Shown here: positions 16,459 through 22,700 of the stretch, piece by piece
Layout: every line of letters starts with the position of its first letter
Numbering within the stretch: position 1 is the first letter of the stretch
Assembly: GCA_017654855.1 (NCBI GenBank)
Contig: JAFMPO010000001.1
Coordinates: 434,001 to 498,000, forward strand
Origin: Podospora anserina
Taxonomy: Eukaryota
Length of the DNA: 64,000 nucleotides
Direction: 5' to 3'
Position numbers and translations under genes: made by a program
The notes under the pieces: model-generated
Database searches by the model: none
The model's input: the letters and a program-made list of their open reading frames with translations, nothing else
What the model was told of the DNA's origin: nothing

Positions 16459-17783
16459 TTAAGCAGCGATCAAAGGCTCCTCCTCACCGGCCTTGGTAGG
16501 GGGAGCAATAGGCTCCGACTTGATGTCCTCCTTGGGAGCGACGGGGAAGTCAGTCGGCTTGAGCTCGGATTTGTGGCCATTCTCCTGACCAACAGCACCC
16601 TTGATCAAGGACTGAGCCTTGGCGGTGTAGTCGCCCATGTACTGCTTGGTAACCTGGGTGGCTTGCTCGGTGTTCTTCTGGACCAAGGAGCGGATCTGCT
16701 CGGTCTGGTCATTGATAATCTCACCAGCGTGCTGGATCTGGCTGTCGATAAGCTCCTGGTTGGTGGTGTAAATGAGAGGGGCGAAGAAGATGACGGAGGT
16801 GGCGATGAGAGCAAGACCCCAGTACGGAACAACCTTGACCAAGTAGTACGAGATGAAGGCGCCGAGGGCAATCTAGCGGGACGAGTTAGCAAATAGCTCC
16901 GAGTCTACAGCTCCGAGAGCCGAAAATATAAGCTCAATCGCCAAGGGGAACTTACAGCAGCGGAAGCCCAGATGTTCTCAGCGAAAAGGATGCGTTGGGA
17001 CTCGATCACACCAAAGTTGATAAGTTCGTTGACGTCGCCAATAACGGCATCAAGTGTCTCTCGAGGAACAGTGTAGTACTTGCGAGGGCGGAGCTGGGTA
17101 GCAAAGCCATTGTTCAAAATGGCTTTTCCGGCGATCTCGGCGGCAATGGTAACACCGAGGGCCATCCATGTGAGCTTGAGACCCCATCGGAGCACATCCA
17201 GGTATCTAACCGAGAAGATGAACGAGACGATTGTGAGGTAGGCAATTCCAGAGGCGCCTAAGAGCCTTCATCAGTACAGCTTTATATCTCGTTGGTGAGT
17301 CCCACTTGAACGTACGAGGATTCTTCCATGACAACAGCTCCGAGAAGAAGGAGTGGTAATGAGTCAAGGGCTGGCCAGTAGCCGCGGTGTACGAAGGAGC
17401 GCGGCGAGAGTTGGCCAAGTTGGAAAGCTCATCCGTGGTTCTCGCGCCCTCGGCCTTGATGTTCTGAGCTACAGGGCCTGCAAGAAAAGTCGACGTCAGC
17501 ATTTGCATGTGAGGATTAGGTGATGTGCAGCTTATCGTACCGCTGGTAACATTGTTGTAGGTGGCAGCAAGGTCTGCAGCAGCTATCGTCAGTTTAGGTC
17601 ACAGGTGGAGAGGTATCGGCTGTCGTGGAGCTGTGAAATACCGGAGCTCGTGTTAGCTGGGTATCTTTGGGCGGGCTGATTAAGGCAACAGAAGAAAAGG
17701 AAGAGCTTCGTACGAACCTTACTGTTCTTGAGGGCATCCACGCTGGCATTCCCGTTCGCATGTCCGTTCGAAATGTCGGCCAT
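16459..17783 (-). CDS. Reticulon-like ER-shaping protein, 5 exons (323 aa)
   Basis: Exons 17783-17723, 17573-17541, 17477-17316, 17257-16956 and 16872-16459 sum to 972 nt in frame. Motifs GQPLTHYHSFFSELLSWKNPR and LIYTTNQELID, with two long hydrophobic hairpins. Confidence 0.88.
17574..17722 (-). other. Putative [D5,6] spliceosomal twin intron (stwintron)
   Basis: On the transcript strand: GTAAG|GTTCGT...GCTAAC...TTTCACAG|CTCC...ACTGAC...CTGCAG, i.e. two donors, two branch points and two acceptors. Confidence 0.75.
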
Positions 17784-19774
17784 TTTTGATGGATATGATG
17801 TCGTTGGGCGGGGATTATTGGTAGTTTGGCAGCTGTCGAGAGACAAATTCTGGGAGTCGGGAACTGTTGGAGGGGAGCTTTCGACTGGCAGGCGGCGGAG
17901 AAAACCCACAAGTGGTTGTGTGCGCTGAGGAAGTCGGTAGGAGGTGTAGAGTACAACAAAGCTGTTGGTGAGTGGTGTAATTTCTTTGTGGCAGAATGAT
18001 GTCTTTTGGATTGGGGATTCCGGGAGACGATTTGAGGATGGCCAGATGAATTTAGAGGAAGAGGGAAAGCCAAGGTGGAGGAATGACGCGAGTGGGAGGA
18101 GCTTGAGACACCAGGGCTTGCTTCCAAGTTGCTGCCTCTTCGCACACGGTGCACCGACTGATCCGTCCCGATGCTCTCTGATAGCAGACACACTAGAGCT
18201 TGGATATGATAGCATAGAGGGGCACTGCAGGCAGTTTTGGCACAGCTCTGCCCCACCAATTCTTCTTCCCCTTCAAACAGTCGGCGGCACGCAAGCACCA
18301 CCTCAAGATGATGAGATCATTGCCAGCAGCCTCCCTCCAAAAACAGGATAGCCCGCCAGCCTATCAACAACGAGCTTCCCGATCTCCCACATTCGTTCAA
18401 TTTTGCACTGTCGGTATCTTTCTTCAGCTACCTGCGGTCACACAACAGATAATGATATTCCCTCCTGTCTTTGTTCTTTCTTCCTGTATTCCATCTTCCT
18501 CACCACTGCGATAAGCCCCTTGACTAAGAACAATTTTGCATCCAACTCTGGCGTAGCACCCTGACGTGCCTTGGCTCTCTCTCTTATCCCTTGTCCCCTG
18601 TCCCTCTCTTCGGTACGTGTCTCTTGGCCTGCTTGTGCCCTTCGCGTTCTAGCCCATAATGGATTTCACATGCTATTTTTTCCCACTTTGACGCGCCGTT
18701 TCGCCCCGGCAGCATCCTTGACTGCCCCTCAAAAATCCACTCTCTTCTTCTTGCTTCTTCCAGAACGTCCACACACCCCCAGCTCCGATAACCGATGACG
18801 TGGGTGAGAGCACACAAGCACACGACACCACTGACAACACCACACCAACTCAAACGACCCAAAAAATAAAAGAGGGATTTCCAGTGCAGCCAAGCGTCTC
18901 AGCCGGTTGCCTCCATCAACATCAAAACCTGCAACGTAACCTCGCTTTTCTTAAACCTGCTCACGTCAACGGGATCTTCAGCAAGAGAGAAGGGACTTGA
19001 CGCAAGTGAATCAAGTTAGCTTTTCTTGTCTACTGCAGGGACGCTTGTGCATAACCCACTTTGGATGCACAGATCCACCTGTGAATAGCCTCACCACCTC
19101 CTGATATGGTCAAAGTCAACATTTGAGCATAAAGCAGTTTACACCGGAAGGCTTTCTTGAGAAACAAGTGGCCTGTGCATCTTCATCAGTAATTTTATGC
19201 TAGTGGTGCAGCATAGCCATCTACTTTCACGGGAAACAAAGCCCTCAGTTCCTCTTCTAATGCTTTCTGATTTAAGCAGTAGTGGGTACGCTATACACTA
19301 TACTCAGGCTCATATACCTGTCATTCCCATCTCTACTCCCTTGATACCCCACCCTGCATTCACCGACTCCCCTCTGTTTGTGCAAACTCAACATACCACA
19401 ACAGCAACCCACAACCCATAAACTACTGGTATCTCATATTGTTTCAATAAACACAACCTTCTCCGCCTCGCCTGTGGACAGCTATGGTTCTTAACCGCAT
19501 ATATGGCATATGCCCCTCCTGAAATCCACCGAAGCAGTAACACGAAACCATCAAATTATATGTGCCCAAAAGAGAAAACTTGCGCCCAAGCGCCTCCACA
19601 TGAGGCGTAATAGAAGGAAAACCAAAAACACAACATAACCGCCTCCCCATGCCTTCTAGGTCATGGAGACATGCTCATTAGAATAAAGCCCAGCAATAGA
19701 AAATCATCAGCCATGAAACACCACCACTCTCAAAACAGCAAGCCAGCCAGTGTATCACACTCATCTTGGCCAGC

Positions 19775-22700
19775 TCACCTCCTCCAGCCCCAGAAACCGC
19801 CACCGCCCGTAGCATTGGTGGCGGCAGGCGCCGTGGCGGCCTTCTGAGGGGACTCGCCAGGAGCAGGCACAGACGTCGGTCCGGTCGTCCCAGTAAGCCG
19901 ACCAAACATGCCCATAGCTGCTGCCGCTGGCCCCCCACCGTCTGCCGTGCTGTGGTTTCGCTGCAGCGCTGGTGGTGTCTCGCCCGGAGCCAGCCCAAAG
20001 GCCTTCCGGAGCTGCTCCAGCTTCTGCCTCGCCTCCTCGGCTTCCTGTTTGGCGACAGCTTCGGCCGTCTTCGCCGCCGCGAGCTCTAGCAGAAGGGCAT
20101 CACTCTCGCTGGTTGGGATAGGCGGGGGTGGGGGAGGAGCCATGACGTTCAGGGTGGAACCGGCCGAGTCCCGGTTGGACTTCTTCTGCATCGTCATCGA
20201 CGACGCTCGCTTGTTGTAGTTGGGCGGGTGGGATGGGGTGGACCTGCTGCGGCCCAGCTTGAGCTCGCGGAGACCACTTGTACCCGCTGCCGTACCAATC
20301 TGGGGGAACCACTCGGTACTGGTCGCGTTAGAGGCTGGCGTGTCGGACGCCCTGGTCCGCATGCTATGTATCTGCCGCTCGAGGCGCTGCTTCTCCTGGT
20401 GTAAAGTTCGGACATGTGTGTGGCTCTCCCTCAGTTGCTCCTTCAGAGAGGAGACCTCCTGCTCCGCTTCATGAATCTTGCGTTCGTGCTCTCGTGACCT
20501 GGACACCTCGTGGGATAACTGTTCTTTCGCCCGAGCCAGCTCGTCTCGAAGTTGTGATTTGGTCTGCGCCATGGACGACCGTCGGTTGACCACCGAGTCG
20601 CTGAAGCGAAGCTCGACGATATCGAGCAGGTCGGATAGCTCCTCCGAGGTGGGCTTGACTGTCTCGTCACCCTCTTCCGAGGTTGGCTCAGTCGAGGCAT
20701 CTCGAATGGTGTCCTCGCTATCGACACTGGACGACAATGCCGCCGAATCCTCGGCGCCCGCCTTTTTGCGCAGGCCGTCCAGCAACGATCGTACTGCCTT
20801 TCTGTCCTCATCGCGGTCTTCCTTTTCCTTTTGTAGCTGGCTGGCCAACAAGGCATGGTTCCGTTGCAGTTCGCTAAGGGCTGTGAGCAAGTCTTCAATC
20901 TGGCTGTGAAGTTGCTTGTCCTCCTTGCTGTTATTGGCGCCGCTCGAGAAGACGGCGGGCGATGTCTTTTGCGGCGCGCCCGTCACGGTTGAATCGTCAG
21001 CGGAGCTGTCCCGCGAGACGGACGTTGCTTCGGTAGATACGGAGCTGAGGACGCTAGCGGCAGATGAAGTAGTGGACGAGCCAACCTCCATCGAGTTGAG
21101 GGTGGATGCCAGGCTCTGCTTCGACGTGCTTCGCCGAAGCATGCTCAACGGACGCGACACGGCGCCCAGGCCGGGATTGAGCGTGTTGGTAGTGGTGTTA
21201 GCAGTACTGGTGTTGCTGGATGCGGAGGCGGCTGCCGCAAACGTGGCAAATCGCGGTGTTGAAGAGGAAGCCCACAGGCGACCCAGAAAACGGGAGGCTG
21301 CGGTGGTAACATCCGACACCTGTTGCGCTGTTGCATCTGTGGCACGGGGATTGGCGCTTGGGCTAAGGTTAGCTTCTCTGTACCCCTGCTCCAAGGCTGC
21401 CAACCGGGCCTTGGTGACAATTTCAGAGAGCGCAGCAAAATCCTGGACAAACTCGTCGGCGTTGTAGTTGTAGCAGTCCCAGAGCCCGCGCGATAGGAGC
21501 AGATGCATCACGTCCTCGAGCTCGGTGCAGGCCAGGATGCGCGCCTGGTTCTTGCGCATGAGCGACAAGGCGACTCGCATGATGGTCTCTGACGCCCCCT
21601 CGGCAAAGATCACATCGTAGATGCGAAACAGCATGGGCAGGGGGCACGTTACGGCGAAGAAGGAGAGGAACCACTGTGAAACATAGGCGGGTTCGACTTG
21701 CAACTCGTCCAGATGCGTCGACAGAGTGGGCAGATGCTGGCGCAGCAGCTCTCTGAATTGGTAGATGCGGACATGCAGCCCTGACAGATCGGGAACGAAA
21801 CAATGGCGCAGATCGTAGTTCTCCATCAACCTAGTTTTGAGTGCCTTAGTTAGTCCAAATACTCCGGACGAATCGGTACGATTCCTGTTCCCTTACCTGA
21901 CCAGAACACAGAATGCCTGCTTGTCACTCATGTGCATGAGCAAGGGGCCGACCAGAAAGGCGAGCCCTTGGCAGTACCCAATCTTGGTGTCATAGAGACT
22001 GAAGCACTTGAGCACCCGACCGAGCATTCGTTGGCCATCGCCTTCGGGATCCCTAAACATGTCCACACCTGGAAAGCTTCGTCCAAGATCCTTGCTGATG
22101 ACGCCCTCATAGGGGCTAGACTCGCCAGACAACCGTTCGAAAACCTCTTCCAGGGCACTGTCGCGGGCGCCGGCCATGCTCTGCCAGACAACACCCCGCA
22201 GCGGCGGTGGGATGCCCTTCCTGACCTTGTTGGACAACAGAGTCGGCAGGCGAGCAGCCGTTTGCTGAGGGTCTTTGACCAAGGCGAGGTAGAACTCAAG
22301 CTCAGTCATGGGCGTCGGCGGCAACGTCGAATACCGGAGGGCTGGAGGGGTCGGCCCGGTGACCATTTTCCGAAGCTGTGCCATCGAGGGAGGTCTCGGG
22401 TGGCTCTCTCGCAAGTGTTGCTGTCGCTCAATGATCTTGACCTTGATGCTCTTCGGATTGGTTGCGATTCTGTTGTTTTCTTGTTCCAGCCGAGCAAGCA
22501 GCGAGGCGGTGGACTGTAGAAAGAAAGTCTTGTGTTAGCCTCGAAAAAAACAGTGCAAAAAGAAATGTAGCTGTGATGAGACAGTAGGACGGCGTGGGAC
22601 GGTGAGACAGTCCAAAGACACGGGAGAATTTGATCCTCGTTGCTCGGTGCAAGTCGCTCGTTTCCTGGGACTCTTTGTGATTCGGCTTTGCACCTACCGC

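Follow-up and report, generated by a model that had tools for sequence, protein, structure and literature searches.

The window considered here is a stretch of 64,000 nucleotides (64 kb) from Podospora anserina (GenBank assembly GCA_017654855.1, contig JAFMPO010000001.1, positions 434,001 to 498,000 of the forward strand). All positions below are counted from its first letter. The minus strand carries a gene of the rtnA type at 16459-17783. According to the translation of the gene model, it consists of five exons separated by four intervening sequences, and encodes a protein of 323 amino acids (aa). Exons 4 and 5 each match the Pfam family Reticulon (PF02453) above the curated cut-off. The element of interest is the first intervening sequence, which is 149 nucleotides (nt) long and has a complete intron placed inside its own 5′ splice site, or donor. 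Introns nested in this way are termed spliceosomal twin introns (stwintrons), and the type in which the external donor is interrupted between its fifth and sixth bases is designated [D5,6].

A protein database search with exon 4 as the query gave 433 candidates, 233 of them with E <= 0.001. The top named matches are reticulon-like proteins of Sordariales, from Triangularia verruculosa (94% identity), Cercophora samala (94%) and Apiosordaria backusii (91%), and the nearest named proteins belong to Podosporaceae. The positions of the introns are also informative. According to Kavalecz et al. (2019, Sci Rep 9:9940; PMC6616335, cited throughout from parts of its text), rtnA of Sordariomycetes lacks introns at positions 3-5 of Aspergillus nidulans, and carries, 14 nt downstream of position 4, an intron found only in this class. 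Two more distant relatives in which the extra introns are present (L020 and L021) were used as stand-ins for A. nidulans in the comparison of intron positions. Compared by eye, intron 3 of P. anserina lies downstream of its counterpart in these loci by 14 nt (TGGAAGAATCCTCG). With these stand-ins, the gene matches the Sordariomycetes model, having no introns at positions 3-5 and one intron 14 nt past position 4.

The nested structure can be read on the minus strand. The external donor contributes its first five bases, GTAAG (17722-17718), and a complete U2-type intron with the donor GTTCGT (17717-17712) starts directly after the fifth base, which is the [D5,6] arrangement. Within this internal intron, 54 nt separate the donor element from the branch element GCTAAC and 18 nt separate the branch element from CAG, the total length being above the 42-nt minimum. 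The 57 nt that remain of the external intron (17630-17574) have a branch element and an acceptor of their own, without a donor of their own. When the internal intron is excised in silico, the result is a canonical donor GTAAG|C (consensus GTRWGH; the bar marks the joint) and an external intron of 62 nt, in which ACTGAC is followed after 11 nt by CAG. Enumeration of 3′ splice sites gives a second candidate internal acceptor at 17620, which would make the internal intron 98 nt and the external intron 51 nt long; the base after it is C. The whole element is the first intervening sequence of the gene, is in phase 1, and lies in the N-terminal extension of a protein with a Reticulon domain (PF02453), as expected of the rtnA stwintron.

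Conceptual translation of the RNA left by the first step alone gives ...LKNSKLHDSRYLSTCDLN followed by a stop. Because of this in-frame stop the intermediate is untranslatable, and the protein can be made from the two-step product only. The length of exon 2 is a multiple of three, and its omission keeps the frame (...LKN-S-PVAQ...). The base following the external acceptor is A, and an alternative internal splice to this acceptor would therefore restore a donor GTAAG|A. An earlier note on this DNA, made from the letters alone, had given coordinates for the nested intron, its branch elements and acceptors, and exon 2, all of which agree with the minus-strand sequence. It had also claimed that the first step alone leads to an in-frame stop, and that the 33-nt exon 2, with its phase-1 flanks, could be skipped in frame; translation and intron phases bear this out. 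The features are collected in Table 1.

Table 1. Features of the rtnA-type gene of P. anserina, in positions of the window.
Feature	Position	Strand	Length (nt)	Description	Evidence
Whole first intervening sequence, proposed [D5,6] stwintron	17574..17722	-	149		Net removal in 4/4 RNA-like contig sets
External donor, first five bases	17718..17722	-		GTAAG	Sequence; GTRAG invariant here in 12/12 relatives
Internal intron	17631..17717	-	87	Donor GTTCGT 17717-17712; branch element GCTAAC 17657-17652 (branch A 17653); acceptor CAG 17633-17631	
External intron, 3′ part	17574..17630	-	57	C17630 = donor base 6 (GTAAG|C); branch element ACTGAC 17593-17588 (branch A 17589); acceptor CAG 17576-17574	
Second candidate internal acceptor	17620..17622	-		CAG|C	Enumeration of 3′ splice sites; no sign of use
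Exon 1, coding part	17723..17783	-	61	ATG 17783-17781; ends in phase 1	Sequence, translation; joint 17723|17573 in contigs of 4/4 runs
Exon 2	17541..17573	-	33	Phase 1 on both sides; N-LAATYNNVTS-G across junctions	Kept in contigs of 4/4 runs
Intron 2	17478..17540	-	63	Donor GTACGA; branch element GCTGAC 17500-17495; acceptor CAG ending 17478	Joint in 4/4 runs
Exon 3	17316..17477	-	162		Translation; RNA-like contigs
Intron 3	17258..17315	-	58	Position Sordariomycetes-specific according to the text of PMC6616335	Joint in RNA-like contigs
Exon 4	16956..17257	-	302	N-terminal part of Reticulon domain	PF02453, E 1.1e-13, 51.8 bits (cut-off 31.8)
Intron 4	16873..16955	-	83	GTAAGT..GCTAAC..TAG	Joint in 4/4 runs
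Exon 5, coding part	16459..16872	-		Stop TAA 16461-16459; end of Reticulon domain and C-terminal extension	PF02453, E 5e-09, 36.7 bits

Evidence from RNA comes from public sequencing runs. In seventeen runs some two thirds of the sampled words are present, a fraction equal to the exon share of the stretch, and these runs were guessed to be RNA; six runs contain all the words, and are presumably DNA. Assembled Logan contigs were used from four RNA-like runs belonging to four studies, giving six contig records. Such contigs report the major form and drop rare ones. In each of the four runs one contig has the joints 17723|17573 (149 nt, with GT..AG ends on the minus strand), 17541|17477 (63 nt), 17316|17257 (58 nt) and 16956|16872 (83 nt). 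Exon 2 is thus retained in all four, and the net removal at the first intervening sequence is exactly 17574-17722.

Related sequences were obtained by a metagenome scan using exon 4 as the query, which gave 21 loci with 44-82% identity. Twelve of these were counted in the comparison of the first intron. The others either end before the exon-1 boundary (L002, L003, L012, L014 and L019) or are intronless and resemble complementary DNA (cDNA) (L010, L013, L015 and L016). L006 and L007, nearly identical where they were compared (one 3-nt difference in intron 2), were counted as one lineage. A double donor of the form GTRAG|GTNNGT is present at the exon-1 boundary in all 12 genomic relatives that reach it, and the full nested motif is matched by 11 of them, the exception being L018, which has no consensus external branch element. 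An alignment of nine sequences has 23 invariant columns in the intron, of which 22 fall within five splice elements. These are the double donor, the branch element (GCTRAC) of the internal intron and the bases preceding its acceptor, and the branch element and acceptor of the external intron. Conservation does not extend to the remainder of the intron.

The individual bases of the double donor are also instructive. All nine aligned loci have a G at base 6 of their composite donor, as does only one of 26 donors of introns 2-4 in the same loci (the intron-4 donor of L017, a partial match, was left out of this count). The restored donor has a base other than G in at least one parse of every relative. 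The unusual internal donor GTTCGT is found at the same site in L006, L007, L009, L011 and L017, and intron 4 of L005 and L006 begins with it as well, so that it is an accepted form of donor in these fungi. Seven of the nine aligned loci have an exon 2 of 33 nt, and the other two (L009 and L011) one of 54 nt; the peptide of exon 2 is conserved in annotated orthologues. The four intronless loci lack every intron of the gene, and all of them keep exon 2.

Two other possible causes of the conservation were considered and rejected. An intronic non-coding RNA was sought in Rfam, which gave a single match at chance level, located elsewhere (E 0.98). A special RNA structure was looked for by folding the 149-nt sequence, which is no stabler than its shuffles (z = +1.05).

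In the text of Kavalecz et al. (2019), a [D5,6] stwintron is described as the first, phase-1 intervening sequence of rtnA (AN5404 in A. nidulans). It is reported in almost all Pezizomycotina, 754 orthologues having been mined. The authors call it the oldest stwintron yet described, and they confirmed splicing intermediates in A. nidulans, A. niger, Botrytis cinerea, Trichoderma reesei, Neurospora crassa and Helminthosporium solani, two of which are Sordariomycetes (PMC6616335). We conclude that the 149-nt sequence of P. anserina is probably the [D5,6] stwintron that is conserved in rtnA across Pezizomycotina, here present in the orthologous gene and removed by two ordinary U2 reactions in succession. 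The anatomy, the net removal of 149 nt, the inclusion of exon 2 and the conservation of the five signals are direct observations; the order of the reactions, and any skipping of exon 2 in P. anserina, are suggested by orthology with the published cases.

The proposed sequence of events is as follows. In the first step, the internal intron (17717-17631) would be excised with GTTCGT as donor, A17653 of GCTAAC as branch point and the CAG ending at 17631 as acceptor, which would join GTAAG to C17630 and create the donor GTAAGC. In the second step, the 62-nt external intron would be excised with A17589 of ACTGAC as branch point and the CAG ending at 17574 as acceptor, joining exon 1 to exon 2, which is normally included. 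A route to skipping can be suggested from N. crassa. The text of PMC6616335 reports that in this species exon II is 33 nt long and absent from 3 of 13 expressed sequence tags (ESTs), that Sequence Read Archive reads show the intermediate, and that skipping proceeds through pairing of the internal donor with the external acceptor to give GUAAG|A, which is then spliced to the 3′ splice site of intron 2. In P. anserina the internal donor could in the same way be used with the acceptor at 17574 to give GTAAG|A, followed by the 3′ splice site at 17478, so that 17723 would be joined to 17477.

Several results weigh against this interpretation. The expected splicing intermediate (17718|17630) was found in none of the six contig records, from which rare forms are dropped. 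For the same type of data, no contig set of the four runs has an exon 2-skipped messenger RNA (mRNA) (17723|17477) or a skipping intermediate (17718|17573), nor is a skipped form present among the four cDNA-like contigs of relatives, which represent the major form only. The internal donor GTTCGT deviates from the published consensus GTRWGH, and the published strict search motif, GTRWGGTRWGH(25,120)DYTRAY(4,24)HAGH(25,120)DYTRAY(4,24)HAG, has no match on either strand of the 64-kb window. When the motif is relaxed to allow an internal donor GTNNGH, it has exactly one match on the two strands of the window, which is the first intron of rtnA, but the relaxed motif also occurs in dinucleotide shuffles of the window (200 shuffles, mean 0.28 matches, with at least one match in 23.5%). 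Finally, excision in one step from GTAAGG would yield an identical mature mRNA.

Some of these points can be answered. The strict motif is a heuristic for searching and not a definition, and it fails here because the internal donor has T and C at its positions 3 and 4. GTTCGT is the only misfit and is conserved in relatives, so the failure is not a disproof. Since shuffled windows match the relaxed motif so often, the motif alone is weak evidence, and it could be argued that the nested structure is a chance resemblance, made up of short degenerate splice motifs inside a long intron. A more specific calculation was made with the real 149-nt intron, keeping the outer donor and the 3′ end fixed and shuffling the inner 124 bases, and the full nested fit was obtained in 110 of 200,000 shuffles. 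Chance is excluded by the rarity of these fits, taken together with the exact coincidence of the match with an RNA-verified intron in the one gene known from the literature to have the device, and with the finding of the same design in 12 of 12 relatives. Conservation effectively refutes this explanation, which we regard as scarcely credible.

The more serious alternative is that the sequence is a plain 149-nt intron, removed in a single step from GTAAGG at 17722 with the branch at 17589 and the acceptor at 17574, and that the internal signals are relics or rarely used. In its favour, the contigs show the net removal only; GTAAG is moreover a perfect consensus for the first five bases of a donor, and 149 nt is within the fungal range, introns over 160 nt being rare according to the text of PMC6616335. 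It leaves unexplained, however, why in an otherwise diverging intron a second donor, an internal branch element and an internal 3′ region should have stayed the same in 12 of 12 relatives. The donor it calls for has G at +6, which is outside the consensus GTRWGH (PMC6616335) and is avoided in the neighbouring canonical donors, and intermediates have been cloned from two other Sordariomycetes (PMC6616335). Removal in one step is distinctly unlikely as the general route, although some fraction of the transcripts may be spliced in this way.

It may also be asked whether the nested signals act mainly as decoys or regulators, diverting transcripts into unproductive products with premature stops which tune the expression of rtnA, with no obligatory two-step route. 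The two donors overlap and must compete, and splicing could run from GTAAGG to the internal acceptor (17631) or from the internal donor to the external acceptor (17574); on translation, both products have in-frame stops or frameshifts. No such dead-end joint or unproductive product is present among the six contig records, which is weak evidence given that contigs drop rare forms. The intermediates described in the text of PMC6616335 agree with productive two-step splicing, and the non-G base available to the restored donor in every relative is as expected if the second step matters. A mainly regulatory function is accordingly very unlikely, and two-step removal of an orthologous stwintron remains the interpretation that we favour.

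The earlier note had proposed that this is the orthologous device, and had suggested aligning related introns. The alignment shows that the double donor and both pairs of branch element and acceptor are conserved. Orthology is further supported by the Reticulon domain, by the same place and phase of the intron upstream of PF02453, and by the Sordariomycetes pattern of introns; two-step splicing itself we infer. The note had also mentioned a link between donor-disrupted stwintrons and exon skipping in reticulon-like transcripts of Aspergillus. The text of PMC6616335 does report such a link, between the stwintron and skipping of the next exon, in A. niger and also in N. crassa.

The annotation of orthologues gives a mixed picture. 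It had been expected that standard gene finders would call a single intron of 149 nt. Sixteen orthologue models, chosen by hand from 120 listed, were inspected. Seven of them have the exon 1-2-3 product, as expected, and the other nine are annotated otherwise. Three (P0004, P0013 and P0016) translate 'SK' followed by the external intron, as would result from removal of the internal intron alone, so that in these three cases the gene finders did recognise the internal intron as a separate one. Two models (P0012 and P0039, from Corynascus and Thermothelomyces) are without exon 2, which could be a true loss of the exon or a skipped model. Three (P0017, P0020 and P0032) start downstream of exon 1, and one (P0002) retains intron 2.

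A further feature of the alignment concerns the internal acceptor. In all eight aligned relatives, which are Sordariomycetes, an NAG lies directly before a conserved stretch TGT(T/C)(T/C)C (alignment columns about 113-129), and its use would restore GTRAG|T. In six of the eight, a CAG follows exactly 10 nt after that NAG. P. anserina has CCGG|TATTTCACAG at 17631-17646 on the minus strand, with GG in place of the proximal AG. The proximal AG being missing, only the distal CAG is usable, giving GTAAG|C. On the basis of these sequences, the proximal AG would appear to have been lost in the P. anserina lineage, and the donor GTAAG|C may be weaker than the ideal GTRAG|T. We speculate that the tandem acceptor is a conserved switch for the strength of the rebuilt donor, setting the balance between inclusion of exon 2, skipping and dead-end products. 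This idea is tentative and on balance improbable. If it were true, P. anserina would be a natural variant in which the internal 3′ splice site has been shifted, possibly with altered ratios of the rtnA isoforms. A tandem acceptor acting as a switch was not met in the Results and Methods text of PMC6616335 (figures and supplements aside).

Some of the related sequences have features of their own. The loci L010, L013, L015 and L016 resemble assembled transcripts, and the metagenome collection thus includes cDNA-like records. The two loci with an exon 2 of 54 nt show it at L009:2457-2762 and L011:1738-1851. In L009, the module of exon 2 and intron 2 moreover looks tandemly duplicated when examined by eye, with repeated coding units GVTPQLQNAYN..AKSVTNG and two near-identical introns, GTATGCTTATC. 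The distant L018 (44% identity) has two double donors of the form GTGAG|GT, in its first (L018:181) and its second (L018:388) intervening sequence. For Dothideomycetes, Xylonomycetes and Lecanoromycetes, the text of PMC6616335 reports an additional [D5,6] stwintron in this second place.

Other observations concern the surroundings of the gene. Upstream of rtnA, and also on the minus strand, there is a RabGAP-TBC open reading frame at 19775-21892. A protein of Phyllachora maydis (P0082, 1472 aa) has RabGAP-TBC and Reticulon domains together, which could be a gene model fused across conserved neighbours. On the plus strand, the open reading frame at 12009-13151 matches nitronate monooxygenase (PF03060), and is apparently an ordinary neighbouring gene. 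One contig, from run X13, ends at 17933 with a loose end of 13 letters, while other contigs reach past 17950. We take the loose end to be the start of a common sequencing adapter, and the end of the contig is probably technical rather than a start of transcription.

The device is already known in rtnA and in Sordariomycetes; the present analysis confirms the observation and supports its interpretation. It adds little new biology, being one more instance of a published and experimentally verified stwintron. Literature retrieved on stwintrons together with Podospora consisted of reviews only, not specific to rtnA. The practical value is in annotation, where recognition of nested introns helps to correct rtnA gene models, and the case shows that nested introns can be recognised from raw sequence alone.

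Comparison with known systems places the P. anserina element close to the published ones. It shares with rtnA of A. nidulans and other Pezizomycotina the PF02453 family, the location in the first, phase-1 intervening sequence in the N-terminal extension, and nesting between donor bases 5 and 6; it also shares the small phase-1/phase-1 exon followed by a canonical intron, and has the Sordariomycetes pattern of introns. It differs from A. nidulans in the restored donor, which is GTAAG|C rather than GUAAG|U, and in the lengths of the two introns, which are 87 + 62 nt as compared to 75 + 76 nt. Its internal donor GTTCGT lies outside the search consensus GTRWGH, and it is known from its anatomy and net splicing, whereas in A. 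nidulans the intermediate has been verified. A further parallel is with N. crassa, which likewise has an exon II of 33 nt, an external acceptor followed by A, from which GTAAG|A can be restored, and a canonical intron 2 whose 3′ splice site could complete an in-frame skip. Skipping of exon II is seen in 3 of 13 ESTs of N. crassa, and in none of the four P. anserina contig sets, a difference that is uninformative since contigs drop rare forms.

Donor-disrupted stwintrons of other types exist, and those of the [D1,2] type are reportedly found in Hypoxylaceae. A paper cited here from part of its text (PMC7138796) restates the finding in Pezizomycotina, and describes [D4,5], [D6,7] and [D7,8] nested introns of parallel origin in a reticulon-like gene of Lipomyces. 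The P. anserina element resembles the Hypoxylaceae and Lipomyces stwintrons in having an internal U2 intron inside the donor of an external U2 intron, consistent with removal by consecutive standard splicing reactions. It differs from them in the nesting point and in the taxa concerned, and the Lipomyces cases are at another intron position of the orthologous gene.

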